Positions 13,837 to 64,000 of a stretch of 64,000 nucleotides of DNA are shown here, in pieces (position 1 is the stretch's first letter; every line of letters begins with the position of its first letter). Location: the NCBI GenBank assembly GCA_013239625.1, contig MU054757.1, forward strand, positions 2,026,251-2,090,250. Direction: 5' to 3'. Under the pieces are notes generated by a model. That model ran no database searches, was not told the origin of the DNA, and saw nothing but the letters and a program-made list of their open reading frames with translations. Position numbers and translations under genes: made by a program. The DNA comes from Lama guanicoe (lineage: Eukaryota).

Positions 13837-13955
13837 GGAGAGGGGGAAGGTCTAGCTCAGTGGTAGAGTGCATGCTTAGCATGCACAAGGTCCTGGGTTC
13901 TATCCCCAGTACCTCCATTTAAATAAAGAAGCCTAATTACCCCCCCAAAACCAAA
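13837..13955 (+). mobile_element. tRNA-Ala(AGC)-derived SINE (camelid Vic-1-like)
   Basis: A box tagctcagtgg, cttagcat anticodon loop, B box ggttctatcc, A-rich tail. 15-bp TSD aaaactaga(g/t)taagc at 13822-13836 and 13956-13970. Confidence 0.88.
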
Positions 13956-26759: not shown

Positions 26760-29252
26760 TTTTTAACATTCTTTAATTGAGTTATAGTCATTTTACAATG
26801 TTGTGTCAAATTCTAGTGTAGAGCACAATGTTTCAGTTATACATGAGCATACATATATTCATTGTCACTTTTTTTCTCTGTGAGCTACCATAGATCTTGT
26901 ATATATTTCCCTGTGCTATACAGTATAATCTTCTTTATCTATTCTGCATATGCCTGTTAGTATCTACAAATTTTGAAATCCCAGTCTGTCATCCCTTCCC
27001 ACGCCCCCTTGGCAACCATAAGTTTGTATCCTATGTCTATGAGTCTGTTTCTGTTTTGTATTTATATCCTTTTTTGTTTTTTTTTAGATTCCACATATGA
27101 GCGATCTCATATGGTATTTTTCTTTCTCTTTCTGGCTTACTTCACTTAGAATGACATTCTCCAGGAACATCCATGTTACTGCAAATNNNNNNNNNNNNNN
27201 NNNNNNNNNNNNNNNNNNNNNNNNNNNNNNNNNNNNNNNNNNNNNNNNNNNNNNNNNNNNNNNNNNNNNNNNNNNNNNNNNNNNNNNNNNNNNNNNNNNN
27301 NNNNNNNNNNNNNNNNNNNNNNNNNNNNNNNNAGGTGTCTTTTTGAAGTAGGGTTCCTTCTGGATATATGCCCAGCAGCGGGATTCCTGGGTCATATGGT
27401 AAGNNNNNNNNNNNNNNNNNNNNNNNNNNNNNNNNNNNNNNNNNNNNNNNNNNNNNNNNNNNNNNNNNNNNNNNNNNNNNNNNNNNNNNNNNNNNNNNNN
27501 NNNNNNNNNNNNNNNNNNNNNNNNNNNNNNNNNNNNNNNNNNNNNNNNNNNNNNNNNNNNNNNNNNNNNNNNNNNNNNNNNNNNNNNNNNNNNNNNNNNN
27601 NNNNNNNNNNNNNNNNNNNNNNNNNNNNNNNNNNNNNNNNNNNNNNNNNNNNNNNNNNNNNNNNNNNNNNNNNNNNNNNNNNNNNNNNNNNNNNNNNNNN
27701 NNNNNNNNNNNNNNNNNNNNNNNNNNNNNNNNNNNNNNNNNNNNNNNNNNNNNNNNNNNNNNNNNNNNNNNNNNNNNNNNNNNNNNNNNNNNNNNNNNNN
27801 NNNNNNNNNNNNNNNNNNNNNNNNNNNNNNNNNNNNNNNNNNNNNNNNNNNNNNNNNNNNNNNNNNNNNNNNNNNNNNNNNNNNNNNNNNNNNNNNNNNN
27901 NNNNNNNNNNNNNNNNNNNNNNNNNNNNNNNNNNNNNNNNNNNNNNNNNNNNNNNNNNNNNNNNNNNNNNNNNNNNNNNNNNNNNNNNNNNNNNNNNNNN
28001 NNNNNNNNNNNNNNNNNNNNNNNNNNNNNNNNNNNNNNNNNNNNNNNNNNNNNNNNNNNNNNNNNNNNNNNNNNNNNNNNNNNNNNNNNNNNNNNNNNNN
28101 NNNNNNNNNNNNNNNNNNNNNNNNNNNNNNNNNNNNNNNNNNNNNNNNNNNNNNNNNNNNNNNNNNNNNNNNNNNNNNNNNNNNNNNNNNNNNNNNNNNN
28201 NNNNNNNNNNNNNNNNNNNNNNNNNNNNNNNNNNNNNNNNNNNNNNNNNNNNNNNNNNNNNNNNNNNNNNTTTATTTTTTTTAGCATTTTGTATTGATTT
28301 ATAATCATTTTACTATTTTGTGTCAAATTCCAGTGTTCAGCACAATTTTTCAGTCATTCATGGACATATACACACTCATTGTCACATTTTTTTCTCTGTG
28401 AGTTATCATAACATTTTGTGTATATTTCCCTGTGCTATACGGTGTAATCTTGTTTATCTATTCTACAATTTTGAAATCCCAGTCTATCCCTTCCCACCCT
28501 CCACCGCCCTGGCAACCACAAGTCTGTATTCTCTGTCTATGAGTCTATTTCTGTCCTCTATTTACGCTTTGTTTTTGTTTGTTTGTTTGTTTGTTTTTGT
28601 TTTTGTTTTTGTTTTTTAGATTCCACATATGAGCGATCTCATATGGTATTTTTCTTTCTCTTTCTGGCTTACTTCACTTAGAATGNNNNNNNNNNNNNNN
28701 NNNNNNNNNNNNNNNNNNNNNNNNNNNNNNNNNNNNNNNNNNNNNNNNNNNNNNNNNNNNNNNNNNNNNNNNNNNNNNNNNNNNNNNNNNNNNNNNNNNN
28801 NNNNNNNNNNNNNNNNNNNNNNNNNNNNNNNNNNNNNNNNNNNNNNNNNNNNNNNNNNNNNNNNNNNNNNNNNNNNNATTGTTTCTTTATTTTCTTTTTC
28901 TGTTGATTCATTGTTAGTTTAAAGAAGTGCAACTGATTTTTGAACGTTAATCTTGTAACCCGCTACCTTGCCGAATTCTTCGATCAGCTCTAGTAGTTTT
29001 TGTGTGGACCTTTTAGGGTTTTCTATATATAGTATCATGTCATCTGCATATAGTGACACTTTTACCTCTTCTTTTCCGATTTGGATCCCTTTTATTTCTC
29101 TCTCTTGCCTGATTGCTGTGGCTAGGACTTCCAAGACTATGCTGAATAAGAGTGGTGATAGTGGGCATCCTTGTCTTGTCCCAGATTTTAGTGGGAAGCT
29201 TTTGAGTTTTTCACAGTTGAGTACTATGCTGGCTGTAGGTTTGTCACATATA
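26760..29252 (-). mobile_element. Young 5'-truncated L1 block with ORF2 fragments (RT region and C-terminus) and two 3'UTRs, interrupted by N gaps 27187-27332, 27404-28270 and 28686-28877
   Basis: Minus-strand peptides [14 protein letters not shown]...[10 protein letters not shown] (RT), LPYDPGIPLLGIYP and FAVTWMFLENVILSEVSQ...ICGI*. 14-bp TSD tccacccttgtctt at 26746-26759 and 29253-29266. Nonsense codon near 28919. Confidence 0.92.
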
Positions 29253-29519
29253 TCCACCCTTGTCTTAAATCACTTTGTTTTTGTAAATTTGAGAGCCAGT
29301 GGTTTAGAATATTTGCCCTCTAGGTCTCACCTATGTGATTATGACCAAGTAATTCAATACTCAATAAGCACCAATGTCAGCTTTTGGGAAATGGGAAAAA
29401 ATGAAAATAAGACCTATTTCCCAAGGTGATTCCCAGAGTCATTTGATAAGTGAAAGCAAAGCATTCTGCAAACTATAAAATTCTATGCAAATGTTAATTA
29501 ATTATACTAGTTGGACAAC

Positions 29520-41451: not shown

Positions 41452-41549
41452 GTTCCCCCAGATCGTCAGAATGAAGTGCTGATCAGCCTGCTGGAGACCG
41501 ATCCTGACGTAGTGGACTATTTGCTCAGAAGGAAGGCCTCGCAGTCGTC
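41452..41549 (+). CDS. ARHGAP6: ARHGAP6 exon 10 (98 nt): [32 protein letters not shown]
   Basis: Acceptor cctgcag|GTT, donor GTC|gtgagt. Translated by hand. Confidence 0.95.
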
Positions 41550-47293: not shown

Positions 47294-47429
47294 GGGGGGC
47301 AGAAGAGGGTGTAGCTCAGTGGTATAGCGCATGCTTAGCATGCATGAGGTCCTGGGTTCAATCCCCAGTGCCCCCATTAAAATAAATAAACAAACTTAAT
47401 TACCTCTCCTCTCCACACCCCCCCAAAAA
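47294..47429 (+). mobile_element. tRNA-Ala-derived SINE (Vic-1-like)
   Basis: gggtgtagctcagtggtatagcgcatgcttagcatgcatgaggtcctgggttcaatcccc plus the same taattacc tail as the 13837 copy. Confidence 0.88.
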
Positions 47430-48046
47430 GGTAGAGGGAGAATTCATCACATCCCCTCTTTTCCCCAGCACCTTTACTGTGATCAACTTCTTTATAAACT
47501 TGCAAGATATGAATTTGAAGATGTTTGACCAGGCGTACTGTAAACAAAATTAATAGAATCATCACTGTTTTCTCTTCACCTGTCATAATGCCTCTGTATG
47601 CTGGGGCTACTAGGAAGGAATTAATAAGAGCTAAAAATGAGGGGAGAAATTTCCCCAAAGGCCTGGGCAACTTCTAATGTCCAGGGTGCTGGCTTTATCT
47701 CCTGGTGGGAGTTTGGATTCGTGTCAGCTTCTCTTTGGAACGGGGTGCCTTTGTCCCTAGGATTCTGCATAAAGGATGCTTTGCAGAACTGAGTATGAGG
47801 AATGTGAAAATCGTCCATAAATCCAGAGCTAGGCAGTGGATTCCTTTCCCCCTACCGTGAACGGTGTCCGAGATGGTTATGTGCTTTGAGTTCCAACAGA
47901 CTAAGGTTTATCAATTAACGACAAAGTCCAGCGTGAAACCAATGCAAGTTCAAACTCTCCAAGGATGCTTCTCACTGGAGTAGCTCAGTGAGGGGCTGGG
48001 CTGGCCACATCCAGTGATTGAACCGGAGTTTTCCGTTTATCCGCAG

Positions 48047-48136
48047 AAAGAGTTCTGTGCCTCCGGCTGCGGTGCAGGCCTGCCCACAGTACCCTGCCAG
48101 CGTGTTTACACCCTGACCTGGAGGGACCGGCTAAGG
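48047..48136 (+). CDS. ARHGAP6: Alternative cassette exon between exons 10 and 11 (90 nt). Codes (S)KSSVPPAAVQACPQYPASVFTP* with the stop at 48114-48116; likely a poison or truncating exon
   Basis: Pyrimidine tract and acceptor ttttccgtttatccgcag|A, donor AGG|gtgaga. In exon-10 phase it resembles the C-terminus I recall for a short human isoform (TSSVLPAAVQACPQYPASMFTP). Confidence 0.75.
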
Positions 48137-49587
48137 GTGAGAAAGCCATTCGCTCTCCATGTCCATCTCATGCGTACCTGGTTAGCTGAGACTGGCCATG
48201 CATGCTGTGGACGGTCCTGGGACTTTCAGGTCTCCTGGGGAAGCTCTCCATCCATGGAGGCAAATCCGTGTCAACTGGCAGGGTATCTGCTCAGCGCTCC
48301 CATCCTCCATCCATGAAATTCCAACACACAGACAGAGAAGCCACTGTGTGCTTCTGAACTATAGTTCTCGTCCGGTCAATCACTGGTTAAATATTTTATA
48401 TAAATAAGTACATGACTATTTATTGCCTTTACTTGAAGTGCTGAACTTAAAATTGTCTTCGTAGAGTTGAATCATCTTAGAGGCAAATCTTAGAGAAGAC
48501 ATTGGTGGCTACTCATCTCATTCTTTCAGAGATACCCTAGGGAGGAAGGGGGTCCTGGATTTGTTTCCAGTTGATTTAATGATAAAGCAATAGAATGACA
48601 CTAACATTTTTTTAAACTCTGAACTGCCTATGTTGTAATGAGAGTTCTGAGGAGTGAATAAAGTAGTCTTATTTTGTTTATTAACTGGTGGGGTGTCACG
48701 TGGAAAGACTCTCTTAAGCATAGGTTCTTAGGCAAATTTGGCCACCACCTTACTGACCTCTGCTGAGAAAATAAAATAATAAATAGGAAATACTTTTAAC
48801 ATATAAAAGAGCCATCAACTCAAAGTCTAAGAGAAAGCACTTTACTATTGAGTTTTAATAATACTGAGTAGTAGTTACCAAATACGCTTTAGGAGTCTCG
48901 ACCCCTTCTGCCTGTACTGCTGGAGAGACACCTTATTTCATCTGCTTCATCGTTTCTTCCTAGACGGTGATCAGAAACAAGAAGGGTTATTAGCGCTAGC
49001 TTAGTACAGTGCCTGCCACACAATGAACTCTGCATAAATATCCATTTTTGTGCCTCTCACAGGCCAAGGGGTTATGTCACGTAAGTGTGTGTCACAAGCT
49101 GTTTGCCATGTATACTCAATCTGTACCCCCTTCCGTGGCCAAGATACGCTGGCTGGGAAGAAAGGCATCACCTCTTGTTGGGTGGCCCCATCTGCCCGTG
49201 CCCCTGACTGTGAGACTCACGGCCTGGGTCTGCCTCACTCACCTCTACCTCCAGGGATTAGCTTTCACCAGCTCCTCCAGTTTCTCCCCTGAGTGGGGCC
49301 ACAGCTGTGGTGACTTTGGGGGCCTGAGTGTGGAGAATGACATAAAAGCAGAGAAAGGCAGATTGGTCTCTCCCGCCCCCCTCTCACCTAAACATATTCT
49401 GGTCCATAACCAAAGCACATTCGGTTATCTGGATCCTGCCACCTCAAAGTCAGGACTGCCACATTTACCCCCACTGCCAGCCAGGGCTGAGGTTTTGGCG
49501 ACTATCTGGGGTTTTTCTCCCGATTTGACTTAGTAGATCCTTAGCCTCATCTATGGGTAGATGGAGGGCAGGTAGGTTTGGTATGGG

Positions 49588-50343: not shown

Positions 50344-50839
50344 AAAGAGTTAGTTTCAGTTATTTTTATTATCGCTATTCTTGTTCTCTGTTTTGTTTTG
50401 TTTTGTTTTAACCAAACTAAATGCTCTCATGAAGCATGCTGCCTTTTCAGTACTCCCAACAATGTGGGCGTGATTTCCCTGTCCAAAAACACTTTATTGA
50501 AGCAGCTTGCAGAAATATGTAAAGTGGAGCAATATCCTAGTAACTAATTTGAAAGACCAGGGAAAGTGGAGTGATGAGGTAAAATGAAGTTGTGCTGTGA
50601 ACACACTAAGGCGTACCACCAGCTCTAATACTCCAGCTCGACTAGAGCCCCAGCTCCTCGGAGCCTTGTAGCAGTCACTGCAAAGACAGGTACTTTCTTT
50701 ATTCCCTGACACAAGGTTCCATGTAGAGAAATAATTTTTACCTCCAAGTAGGTAAAAATAACCTGCTTTGCTTGAGAGAAACACAAATGTCCCTAGTACT
50801 GAGATGTTCGAGAAATTTCTTCCATGAGGCATCTTTCTT

Positions 50840-50940
50840 AGGTTTATCTATTTTTTTTTTAGTGGAGGTACTGGGGATTGAACCCAGACCTTGTGTGCAT
50901 GCTCAGCACGTGCTCTACCACTGAGCTGCTATACCTCCCA
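50840..50940 (-). mobile_element. tRNA-Ala-derived SINE (Vic-1-like)
   Basis: Reverse complement of the same SINE. 18-bp TSD ccatgagg(c/t)atctttctt at 50822-50839 and 50941-50958. Confidence 0.9.
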
Positions 50941-52448: not shown

Positions 52449-52969
52449 CAGGAAGGGTGGATTTACTTACGCTAAGCACTTGGGTGGGGGGAGAAAAAGT
52501 GTCCATAAAGCCATAATGAACTGCATGTAAAGTTTCAATCATAGTTTTATCTGAATTATTTTTACTTCAGGATATTGAGGAAAGTCAAAGAGTTATCTAC
52601 AGGTTTTCCTTACTTAACAGATAGCGAGCATCAGACTTTACTTTAAAAACGGAGACAGGGATTAATCCAACAGGCATTTCAGCGGTGCACCTTGGCGAAC
52701 ACAGGGATCCACTGTTTCAATCTCCCCTGCCCCACTTCGCCTTGCTGTTTCCTGTAACATCTGTTGGGTTTTACTGCCATCTGCTGGCCATTTTATGGAA
52801 ACGCTTTCACCTTCTTGACAGACGTCTTGGACCATTGTTCAGAAGGTCTTTCTGTTTCAGCCCGTGTCCATTCACTCTCCTCCTGTCATTTGTGAAACCA
52901 TCAGGTTGTTTCAGTCTGCTCACTCCCTGTTAACACACTCACGCTCCTGTAATTCTCTCCTTGTGCTAG

Positions 52970-53238
52970 AAGCCCTGACATGCTGAGGTCGGAAGTTTCC
53001 TTTTCCATGGGAGGAAGGCACTCGTCCACAGACTCCAACAAGGCCTCCAGCGGAGACCTCTCCCCTTATGACAACAACTCCCCAGTGCTGTCTGAACGCT
53101 CCCTGCTGGCTATGCAAGAGGATGCGGCCCCGGGGGGCTCGGAGAAGCTTTACAAAGGGCCGGAGCAGTATGTGCTGGTGGGCCACCTGCCATCTTCAAA
53201 GTCAAGGGAGAGTTCTCCTGGATCAAGACTTGGGAAAG
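52970..53238 (+). CDS. ARHGAP6: ARHGAP6 exon 11 (269 nt): [12 protein letters not shown]...SSPGSRLGK
   Basis: Mostly within ORF 52980..53582. Acceptor tgctag|A, donor AAG|gtacct. Confidence 0.95.
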
Positions 53239-54489
53239 GTACCTGGAGCCGGGCTGGCGCTGGCCCACCCAGGGACTCTGACTGCATGTGGCCTGGTGTG
53301 GGCGCTTTGGGCCTTCTCTCCCTCTCTCCCTTGTTTCCTGCTTCTCTGATTCGGTGGCATTTACTGAGGACCTGCCGAACACCCACGCCGGGTCTGAGTC
53401 CCTGCAGACCCGGCTGTCTGGGAAGCAGTCTCATGCTCGGAAAGCCACCGACCTTCCCACCTGACTTGCCCGCCAGCATCCAAGGGACTTTACGTGTCCT
53501 GGCCTGGGGTTTGGGGTGCATATTTGTTAGTCTAAGATGTCACCCAATTATTTGTGTTACTTTTATAAAGAGAACAAGCTGAACTTACAGACAGCATGTT
53601 CCAAAGAGATCTCCACGGGAGATGACCAGTTTTAGGCAACATAACGTTTTCATGGTCAAATACATTTGGGAAATGCTGAAGTAAGCAAGCTAACGGTTTC
53701 TCTACTGTACAATTTCTCAAACCCTTTAAAGTGCTATTGGGCACATGAATTTCCACAATGGGAGGGAGGCTATGCTTTGCAGCTTTTCCCAAATTTATTT
53801 GACCACTGAGTGGTTCTGTTCTCCCCTCCACAGAGTACTTCCTCAGGGTCAGGACTCAGAAGGACACTGTTTAAGTAAGAACTGAAAGACACAGTACAAA
53901 ATCTTGCTATTTTATCTCAAATTTATAGTTTAGTCTGAAGAGCCACTCTGGAAGGGCTCCTATTTTTTCTGGTGTTTTTAATCCTAGCATCTTTATTGTT
54001 ATTTCACAAATATTTGTGTTAAAAATGTTTGTAACTTACAATGAAACCAGTAACCCATGTTCCCATCAGGCATAAGATTTATTTTTAAAATATTAAAGGC
54101 AAAAAATTTATTTTTAAAAGATTGAAGGATTTGCCTCATCTGTCAAACAGACTCAGGGGCATCTCTTCAGGATGAACTGAGAGAATGCATATGAACTGCT
54201 GAACCCAGCAGACATTTGCTTCTAGAAATAGTCATTATCATCACATCATGGAATCGTAGTGAGGATTAGATGAGACAGTGAAAATGCCTAGTATAGCGCC
54301 TCATACTGGAGATATTTACAGACAGACTAAAGGGATGTATGGGAAAATACATGTATGAATAATACCGGGAGGACTCTATTGAGGCTAGTAGGGTGTGTTC
54401 CTGAGGGTAGTACTAGATTTTAAAACTATAACTATTGTTCTTCTATCTCTGTGTTAATGCGGTTGGAGCTGTTGTCACCCATCACAATA

Positions 54490-55201: not shown

Positions 55202-55282
55202 ATATGGCAGAGGAGGCTTTCAATATCTGGGGAACTTGGCATTCAACTTTAAAAAGTGGATCCAAAGACCCAGGAATGACAG
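55202..55282 (+). CDS. ARHGAP6: ARHGAP6 exon 12 (81 nt, phase 1-1): [27 protein letters not shown]
   Basis: Acceptor tcctag|AT, donor CAG|gtgaag. Translated by hand. Confidence 0.94.
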
Positions 55283-57767: not shown

Positions 57768-58348
57768 GTTCCTACGGAGACATTTTTGAGAGCAGCTCCC
57801 TACGACCGGGGCCGTGCTCCCTTTCTCAAGGGAACCTGTCCCCGAATTGGCCTCGGTGGCAGGGGGGCCCGGCGGGGCTGGGCGGCGGTGCGCGGGGCGA
57901 CAGGCCCGAGCAGTGCTGGACTCTGAGCGGCGCCCAAGACGTCGCCGAGAGCGAGCCGGACGTGGCCTGGCCGCAGAGGAGAGCCAAGCCTCCGCCCCAG
58001 AGACCTGGAGAGGGTGCCAAGCATGACAAGAGGCCTCCTCCGCCTTATCCTGGTCCAGGGAAGCAGGCGTCAGCAGCGGCCCACCAGCCCGCGGAGCCAC
58101 CGCTGTGGAGGCCGCAGAGGCCGGAGGAAGGCTCTGGAGCCGCTCTGGAGGAGGGAAGCCGAACAGCCGAGCGGGAGCATCAGGCCGCCCAGCAAAAAGT
58201 GAGCAGCGCCCACCCCGGTCCTTCCAGCGATCAGAACAGTAAGACCTTGGGGGACCCCAGCTGGCTCGACTGGCAGAGAGAGCGGTGGCAGATCTGGGAG
58301 CTCTTATCCACCGACAACCCCGATGCCCTCCCGGAAACGCTGGTATGA
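57768..58348 (+). CDS. ARHGAP6: ARHGAP6 exon 13 coding part: [12 protein letters not shown]...[25 protein letters not shown]
   Basis: Acceptor cttccag|GT. Open through ORF 57962..58348 to TGA. Confidence 0.96.
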
Positions 58349-59473
58349 GCCCCACAGGCTCGAGCCCTCCCGTCCCCAGCAGCCTTCTTCAACTCAGTAG
58401 GGGAAAAAGTGGGTGTGGAACAATTGGGCACTTCCTTATTTTTCTTCCTTTACACTTAAAAAAAAAAACCACGAGAGAAAACTCAGTTCACTTAAAGATA
58501 GAGAGCACTATTACCCTGGCCATTTATAATAAGATTCTATTGCATAGCCAGCCTTCAGAAAAAAACAAAAACAAAAAATGGCTGTTAATACCCAGTCTAA
58601 AAGCTGTTCACATTGGCTCTGTATGCGGCAAAACTCTCGCTTTGGTATCGCTTAACTGTATTTATGTGTCTTCAGTTTTGACTCTTGTATATCTGTAACA
58701 GATTATATATGATAATCGTATATGTTATATTCACAAAAAACAGAAGGAACAAAATTTTTTAATCACTTCACTGATTCTAAGTAATGAGAGTCTGTAGAAT
58801 GTTCTAGAATATGCACAAGCGGGTTTCTGTGCTTTTGCCATAGCTTTTTAACTGAGGACAGCCCTTCCTTCAATGCCTAAGGAAAACACTAACAAAACAA
58901 AGTAAAACAGAATATGACAAGCCATATTTTTATATAGTAGTGAGATACAAAAAAGTATAGTCACTGAATGCTTTTTCATATTGAATACGTTTTAAGGAAA
59001 ATATTAAATTTGATACATTATGGAATATATTTTTAGAATCTGTTTAAGAAAGAATTCAGTTAATGAAGCAAGAGAAAGGCCGTGCCTGACAAAGAAAGAA
59101 TAATTAAGTTGTACTTCCCATTTTAGGTCAAACTCAATTTTATATAGACCATATATAATATATATTTATGATGTACGATTTTTTTTTCAAAACTGCAAAC
59201 TGGAATCCAACTATAAAGTGTTTAAGAATCAAAATAGAGTATTCAAATGACAGAACTTGGTTTTTCCTTTTGCCCCATAATCAGTATTAACCAAATTTTA
59301 TGCAGTGCTTTGTAAAGTAAATCATATTTGGAAGAAAAAAAACTAAAGCTTTGTATTTACATTGTGCCAAAGGCTGAGGAAATGTTTTCTTTGGTAACTT
59401 TCTGTGTAATGTAAAACTCCTACCGCACTTCAGTAGTAAATTTGAAGTTTTTCAAGTGCAAAACAATATTTGA

Positions 59474-61969: not shown

Positions 61970-62800
61970 ACTCGGTCCTCAACTGCCTCCTTGACATCTG
62001 CACCCAACGCCCCACGGTGCCTCAACCGTCCGGAAAGGGCCAGCTGCAGCTTCGACTTCCACGCGGAGCCACGTGGCCTCCAGCCCCCGCCCACTTCTCC
62101 GTCCAGGGAGTCTCACCTGCAGCTTCCCTGGGATCCAAGGCTTGTTGACTCCCACAGGTGTCTCCTGTTTGTCCAGCCTCACCAGCTCAGTTCGAGCCCT
62201 TACCCCCCGCCCCGGTTACCGCGGCAGCCCTCCATCTCCGCCCTCCCCCTTCCTCCACACCACCACCATCACAGCTCCGAAACGCACATCTTGTCCTAGG
62301 CACATCCCTGCTGAAAAAACCTTGAGGCCCTCTTTTCCCTCTGGCCTACAGGACGAAGTCCACACTCCTTTGATAACATCAAAACGCTCCACAATCTGGG
62401 CGCCATCTGCCTTCAGCATCTCCTCTCTCCCCAGCACGCCCCCCCCCCGTGCTCTGGCCGTGTGCGGAAAAATCCCCATTCCCACGTACAGGACACGCTC
62501 TCCCGCCTGTTCCAAGGGCCCCCAGTGCGCTTCCTTGCTTTTCCTATTCAATCAAACGCTCATTTTCTCCTCAGATTAGCCGGAGCCGGCCCCTCCCACA
62601 AGCACGCGGAACCACGACTTACTCCGGCGCCCGGTGTACGTGACCTGGTAACCGGCGCCGCAGTGCATGATGGGTGCCGCCATTTTCCACCGGCCGGCCG
62701 TGGCCGCCCCGTCCCCGACGGCGGGGACTGTGTCCTCAGGACCGCGCAGAGGCCCGACGTGAATTTGCTGTTTGATAAACGTTGGCCGAATGTGTGCATA
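61970..62800. mobile_element. GC/CpG-enriched L2 relic
   Basis: caactgcctccttgacatct, ggcctacaggacgaagtccacactcctt and the 3' motif ggcggggactgtgtc...gataaacgttggccgaatg resemble L2. Confidence 0.5.
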
Positions 62801-63444
62801 TAACTAAGATGGAGCAGGTTACCATGCAGTGGAGAAAAAATACAAGGACATCAACCTCGCGGCTAATTCAGAGGTAGGGCTTTATTTTTCAAATAAAAGG
62901 GTTTTTGAAGTAAGGAGAAGGCAGTCTGAGGAGAAGCACAGAGACCCTGTCTCCTAACCAGCCATGTCCCACAAAGACGCGGCACCGCCGCTCTGTATTG
63001 TAGGGGACAAAGAGGGCGGGTAGCTTGTGATGCATGATTTCTTTATTCCTGAGCTTTGAACTTGAATAGTAAACGTGGGAAGCAAATGTGTATTTCCATG
63101 CTTCCTGCTGGGTGCTCAGTAAATATTTAATGATTAAAAAAACCAGTCACGTTTTAAAGTGTGGGCTTCAGGGTCAGGGAGAACACGGTTTGAGTACTGG
63201 CTTTATCATTCATTCGCTGGTATCCGTTACTTTGACTCATTTTCCGTTTCCTCAGAGTCGTCGAAGCATAACAACATGCAACTGCCAGGATTATTGTGAG
63301 GGTTAAGTGGGGAAATGCCTACAGTAGTGCCAGCCATGCGACAAATATTCAATGCAGTATACTTGGTGTCCCATGTAACATCATTTTAGAAAAAACAAAT
63401 TGGGATCTTCTGCTGCAAACCGCAGCTACTACAAGCTAACACTT

Positions 63445-63630
63445 AGTAACAATGCCAGCTCTGGTCTAAGTGATTCACTAACGTGAGTTCATTTAACCCG
63501 CGCAAGCCGTAGACAGGAACCATGACTAGCCTTATTTTCCAGGGGGCACAAAGACTCAGAGTGACATCAAAGGAGTTGCCCAAGGTCGCACAGCTGGAAG
63601 GTGGCAGAAGCAGGATTCGGTGGCTGGCCA
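63445..63630. mobile_element. MIR SINE (another MIR at ~63150-63350)
   Basis: ttcatttaacc...ttgcccaaggtcgcacagct...gtggcagaagcaggattcg. Confidence 0.75.
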
Positions 63631-63673
63631 TCCAACTGTGCCAACCGGCTATTTGGACAGAACCTCCCGATGT

Positions 63674-63687
63674 CCACTAGGGGGAGC
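63674..63687 (+). promoter_or_regulatory. CTCF core motif
   Basis: CCACTAGGGGGAGC, one mismatch to CCACTAGGGGGCGC. Confidence 0.5.
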
Positions 63688-63774
63688 AAAGCTCTTTCTT
63701 ATCCTCATACAAACCAGATGCCAACATTTGCCTAGAGGTGGAGAGGGCGGAGGGAAGGGAAAAAAAGAAAAAAC

Positions 63775-64000
63775 TTCTCCTCTACCCGCTTAAGTTAATT
63801 GCCTGGGGCCTATAAATTAAACTGACAAAAGACAGTTTGACAAGAGAAAAAGGTTTATTTCCTATGCATACAGGAACCAACAAAAGAAGTATCTGGCTCC
63901 TTAAATGGGTAAAGTTAAAGATTTACATACCCAACCTAGCAGGGAAAAGGGATGGGGGAGGAACAGCTTCTGTGGGAAAAACAAATAGGTTTATTTAAGA
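63775..64000. mobile_element. Possible ERV1-derived sequence, cut by the window end
   Basis: aattaaactgacaaaagacag...aagagaaaaaggtttattt resembles ERV1-class repeats. Weak recognition only. Confidence 0.35.

Follow-up and report, generated by a model that had tools for sequence, protein, structure and literature searches.

A stop-carrying 90-nt cassette exon in intron 10 of guanaco ARHGAP6, the likely ortholog of a poison exon catalogued in humans

Introduction

The RhoA GAP gene ARHGAP6 lies within a 64,000-nt stretch of Lama guanicoe DNA (contig MU054757.1; hereafter the window, with positions counted from its first letter), and its intron 10 contains a 90-nt candidate cassette exon with two in-frame stop codons. 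This raises the question of whether the exon is genuine and, if so, whether its inclusion leads to nonsense-mediated decay (NMD) of the transcript, to a truncated protein, or to neither. The evidence presented below indicates that the guanaco exon is probably orthologous to a poison exon catalogued in humans, and its inclusion is predicted to trigger NMD.

Anatomy of the exon and its host gene

The coding exons of ARHGAP6, numbered here as in an earlier reading of the same DNA made from the sequence alone (the sequence-only reading), map to positions 7522-58349, and exons 4-13 joined without the cassette yield a 672-residue frame with a single terminal stop and an ETLV end. The peptide encoded by exon 11 is identical to that of an alpaca record at 89/89 positions and to that of camel at 87/89. 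Inspection of the window confirmed every coordinate that the sequence-only reading had assigned to a CAG...GT exon of 90 nt with two in-frame stops (Table 1), and the computed join shows that the phase of exon 11 is preserved when the cassette is placed between exons 10 and 11. The AG-free zone at the acceptor measures 16 nt and is shorter than at any other of the 11 acceptors scored. Two extra AGs situated 4 and 6 nt inside the exon (48049-48052) could act as minor acceptors, of which the one at +6 preserves the frame. GC and CpG content rise locally around the exon.

Table 1. Features of the cassette exon and its surroundings in the window (a slash marks the exon-intron boundary)
Feature	Position	Strand	Remarks
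Upstream exon 10	41452..41549	+	ends ..TC/GTGAGT
3' splice site	48024..48046	+	CAG at 48044-48046; pyrimidines 12/17
90-nt alternative (poison) cassette exon, ARHGAP6 intron 10	48047..48136	+	phase 2/2; from window sequence and human catalogues
Alternative C-terminal tail, 22 codons	48048..48113	+	19/22 identical to human, 21/22 to Bactrian camel
Stop 1, in-frame TGA	48114..48116	+	end point of human, orangutan, camel, rat and ground squirrel records
Stop 2, in-frame TAA	48132..48134	+	end position of the pipistrelle protein record
5' splice site AGG/GTGAGA	48134..48142	+	consensus matches 5/9 plus 2 wobble positions
Four YCAY words, candidate NOVA-type cluster	48146..48171	+	+10 to +35 after donor; lead only
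TGCATG, candidate RBFOX site	48199..48204	+	+63; lead only
Three AATAAA hexamers, possible intronic polyadenylation	48657..48783	+	521-642 nt past donor
Downstream exon 11	52970..53238	+	269 nt
Exon 12	55202..55282	+	81 nt
Last exon 13, coding part	57768..58349	+	ends ETLV; lost when cassette included

Stop 1 is located 20 nt from the cassette's own junction, which is too near to count under the 50-nt rule. However, it is 289 nt upstream of the 11/12 junction and 370 nt upstream of the 12/13 junction, and transcripts that include the exon and are spliced through are therefore predicted NMD targets.

Several other features were observed in and around the gene. Exon 11 has a tandem acceptor (TAG/AAG at 52967-52972), and a form shorter by one residue is seen in 20/368 records. 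From its donor (AAG/GTACCT; 53236-53582 region) an open frame continues to 53582, with a TGCATG at +45. Past exon 11, a human 765-aa record and whale records end in another tail, which makes this a second route to a short tail. In exon 13, at 57881-57905, the window has about 41 fewer residues than alpaca and camel records; the gap is in frame, has very GC-rich surroundings, and might be an assembly collapse or a real deletion, a larger piece being missing there in an older alpaca record. Intron 9 contains minus-strand remnants, presumably LINE-1-like, around N-masked stretches (27084-29430). Beyond the 3' end of ARHGAP6, the region 62001-64000 is rich in GC and CpG (84 CpG in 2 kb) and is possibly the CpG island of a neighboring gene.

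The likely human ortholog in published catalogues

The sequence-only reading had described the exon as hidden, a description that no longer holds, as the human ortholog is present in two published catalogues and in GENCODE. Supplementary table ST2 of Mironov 2023 (PMC10123112) contains the event ARHGAP6_chrX_11162368_11166750_11166839_11174649, classified as "annotated, poison exon, PTC within" and with both inclusion junctions; the exon occupies hg19 chrX:11166750-11166839 (90 nt) and was drawn from GENCODE NMD transcripts. Of the 5271 annotated events, 2754 passed the filters for reads and variability in GTEx; this event is one of them, and its PSI spread is 0.11. Likewise, Supplementary Data 2 of Lim 2020 (PMC7347940) gives hg38 chrX:11148630-11148719 as EI_NMD, i.e., NMD-inducing inclusion, on the basis of junction reads from human tissue, the threshold for entry being at least 3 junction read pairs together with 3% PSI. 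The poison-exon arm of the sequence-only reading agrees with the class given to the human exon in both of these catalogue entries.

The human exon resides in the same gene and the matching intron, is likewise 90 nt long with an internal stop, and has the same first-stop position as the window exon, while three residues of the tail differ and the flanking introns (7809 and 4381 nt in human as against 6497 and 4833 nt in the window) differ in length by 450-1300 nt. Judged by gene, length, position and the isoform-2 peptide, the two are likely orthologs. The window exon is, on this assignment, the camelid ortholog of a known human poison exon, a real and conserved feature that was already known.

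The effect of inclusion on expression is less straightforward. In table ST7 of the same GTEx-based study, the human event is recorded as not significant (significant = 0), with delta e_g of +0.22 (z +3.7) and delta e_l of +0.05 (z +1.8), where a call of lowered expression needs z < -5 (PMC10123112). According to this published table, human samples with high inclusion express more of the gene, not less, and the regulatory effect on expression that the sequence-only reading had expected is not borne out by it. With regard to NMD inhibition, the readable supplements of PMC13187750, PMC6547761, PMC11387194 and PMC8233366 have no row for ARHGAP6, that of PMC13078869 has the gene only in a gene-count table with no exon-level row, and the row for the exon in the Lim 2020 table gives no cycloheximide result (PMC7347940).

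The tail in other mammals

Among 443 proteins, 9 end in the alternative tail, 373 continue into exon 11, 33 are of other kinds, and 28 are without the exon 10 motif. The nine records derive from at least six species, a count taken from cluster listings in which the absence of afrotherians, birds and reptiles is uninformative, and these comprise primates, rodents, artiodactyls and bats, i.e., four mammalian orders. Four are human, including cDNA FLJ55566 and isoform 2 (AAC98540.2, labeled "Isoform 2" in UniRef), which is the short isoform that the sequence-only reading had named, with the same first-stop position. The non-human records are those of orangutan, Bactrian camel (XP_045381000.1), rat (EDL90578.1), ground squirrel (XP_077891254.1) and Pipistrellus kuhlii (KAF6276997.1), some of which may have been projected from the human model.

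The tail of the window is identical to that of the orangutan record at 19/22 positions. The Camelus bactrianus protein (623 aa) shares 21/22, its first tail residue being T where the window has K, and the tail is found in none of the 4 alpaca records among the matches listed for the cluster of this protein. The 22-codon frame is open in all six species. The single Pipistrellus kuhlii record has an in-frame insertion, passes stop 1, and ends seven codons later at the position of stop 2 of the window. For the idea that the second stop acts as a back-up, as the sequence-only reading had it, this one record furnishes a single supporting data point.

The short rat protein is recorded on 17 contigs, with Logan among the sources, as compared with 11 contigs for one full-length rat form. 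As the product spans many exons, these contigs would appear to represent spliced RNA. Searches centered on the tail added no further species: among 555 candidate proteins there were 2 matches, namely the query itself and a full-length gecko protein, and among 37 short candidates there were 22 matches, none with the tail.

Distinguishing the exon from chance

In intron 10, 37 AG..GT pairs spaced 50-250 nt apart, the cassette included, match or beat it on simple measures of acceptor and donor. An in-frame stop is present in 36/37 of these pairs and the frame is kept in 13/37, which leaves the combination of frame-preserving length and stops, regarded in the sequence-only reading as a sign of regulation, a weak indicator. 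Splice signals by themselves fail to set the cassette exon apart from chance. Instead, it is singled out by homology, in that the peptide match goes beyond chance under a neutral model. In simulations of neutral nucleotide change at distances of 0.3-0.5, which we take to be the inter-ordinal range, the mean was 8-11 identities of 22, and 19 or more identities were reached in 1/4000 runs at distance 0.3 and in 0/4000 at both 0.4 and 0.5. Across 10 species pairs, tail identity ranges from 15 to 20 of 22, above the neutral expectation, with the peptide serving as a proxy.

Three candidate explanations were set aside. A chance pseudo-exon is rejected by the peptide conservation together with the human junction data. 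Read-through of the stops is rejected, as there are two of them and none of the records runs on past them into exon 11. An origin from a repeat is rejected because a DNA search of the exon against its own genome, in which common words are skipped, returned a single match, namely the exon itself.

Constraint at the RNA or the peptide level

The 12 distinct substitutions in the tail across five species have a mean BLOSUM62 score of -1.08, as compared with +0.89 for the GAP region, -0.15 for exon 11, and a neutral expectation of -0.59 +/- 0.33, a test that rests on 12 changes. The changes in the tail thus lie within the range of unselected changes. Conservation far above neutral combined with non-conservative changes is more readily reconciled with constraint acting on the RNA than with constraint acting on the peptide. 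Further, the shift of the stop in the bat and the non-conservative substitutions suggest that the presence of a stop counts for more than the peptide itself. Disordered tails likewise change non-conservatively, and stop 2, which adjoins the donor, may have been retained for splicing reasons.

Functional considerations

The following scheme is proposed for the exon. Upon skipping, exon 10 would be joined to exon 11, giving the full-length protein ending in ETLV, as can be read from the window. A minority of transcripts would splice the cassette in on both sides, as the published junction data indicate for human and as is presumed for the guanaco. In these, translation would end after 22 new codons, well ahead of the two downstream junctions, and the junction complexes remaining there would be expected under the 50-nt rule to trigger NMD. 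Selection would then maintain the RNA signals and a stop rather than the peptide. More speculatively, RBFOX- and NOVA-type sites 3' of the donor might set inclusion by tissue and thereby trim the amount of ARHGAP6. The YCAY and TGCATG words concerned, which we take to be NOVA and RBFOX motifs, were both picked post hoc among 7 motifs and are leads. When 60-nt stretches of the gene are drawn at random, 0.8% contain a cluster of four YCAY; of random 100-nt stretches, 4% contain TGCATG, which is also present within 300 nt of 2/9 other donors checked. In the wider surroundings, inverted copies of a short repeat, probably a lineage SINE, flank the cassette exon at 47313-47399 and 50838-50927 (73/86 identical), with a third copy at 13846-13930; the flanking pair could base-pair and loop the exon out.

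In its general form the exon resembles the poison exons of the SR-protein genes TRA2B and SRSF3, which are conserved internal exons whose premature stop is linked to NMD. However, its conservation is high without reaching ultraconservation, its NMD sensitivity is predicted, and its host encodes a RhoGAP rather than an RNA-binding protein; hence, direct autoregulation is not expected.

Three observations sit less comfortably with NMD as the main outcome. The lack of a link between inclusion and lower expression in the published GTEx table weighs against a strong role as a dimmer; 17 contigs of the short rat form are many if the RNA is unstable, although assembly is easier for short frames; and RefSeq has protein-coding models with the tail. 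All three bear on an alternative which we regard as unlikely, namely an isoform switch, wherein mRNAs escape decay in some tissues, either through skipping of the donor combined with polyadenylation in intron 10 or through weak NMD, and give rise to a GAP-only ARHGAP6 lacking about 350 C-terminal residues and ETLV. In favor of such a protein, the short forms retain an intact RhoGAP domain (residues 376-531 of 623 aa in Pfam), with positions 1-147 of the 148 of PF00620 covered in 4/4 short forms scanned, whereas ETLV and the family PF28133 are lost (in precomputed annotation the latter is on the long records and not on the short ones). For the short form of camel, the AlphaFold2 model had a mean pLDDT of 35.6 and was set aside, and a PDB search gave only generic RhoGAP relatives. 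The open frame across six species, the in-frame bat insertion, and the RefSeq protein-coding models with the tail in camel and ground squirrel also speak for such a protein, as does a review table in which ARHGAP6 is among the partners of MAGI1 PDZ2, with binding tied to the last residues, the final four of which are the same as in NET1 (PMC8428372). Further, widespread escape from NMD via intronic polyadenylation behind poison exons has been described, and the poison exons of VRK3, NFX1, TM2D3 and DDX31 are, as in ARHGAP6, stop-bearing exons followed by AATAAA in the next intron (PMC13187750). However, ARHGAP6 has only candidate poly(A) hexamers, does not appear in the supplement file of that paper, and has AATAAA at the level of chance, the hexamer being present in 36% of random 700-nt stretches of the gene. 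Additionally, the entries in both human catalogues are for an internal exon, the tail changes non-conservatively, and the GAP-only form is known from translated records alone. A composite of these possibilities appears rather improbable: a tissue-controlled three-way switch across mammals, wherein skipping would give the full-length, PDZ-anchored GAP, splicing-through would give mRNA decay, and the use of intron-10 poly(A) would give GAP-only ARHGAP6 off MAGI1 scaffolds, with the NOVA/RBFOX-type sites choosing among them.

At the other extreme, the exon could be a by-product without a regulatory role, the DNA being conserved as an enhancer or RNA element and the low-level splicing being tolerated noise that is cleared by NMD. 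The missing negative relationship between PSI and expression in the GTEx table would be consistent with this, as would the abundance of stop-bearing look-alike splice-site pairs in intron 10, the location of the exon within the local GC/CpG rise, and constraint that appears to act on nucleotides. Nevertheless, we consider it very improbable, given that the same acceptor and frame recur in records of four mammalian orders with a stop retained even in the bat, while in the neutral simulations just 15-30% of pairs keep both the open frame and the stop at distances of 0.3-0.5. The argument from several orders is itself weakened by the possible projection of the human model onto some of the non-human records. 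A stop-carrying exon with predicted coupling to NMD probably remains the best description of this locus.

Implications

No study of the ARHGAP6 exon itself, whether of its spread over four orders, the second stop used in the bat, or the choice between NMD and a short protein, was found in the Creative Commons literature of PMC and bioRxiv. In terms of annotation, the gain is one more species for a known exon. Should the exon be a true dosage switch, ARHGAP6 could be raised by means of splice-blocking oligonucleotides. A short protein, were it made, would uncouple the RhoA GAP activity from anchoring via PDZ domains.
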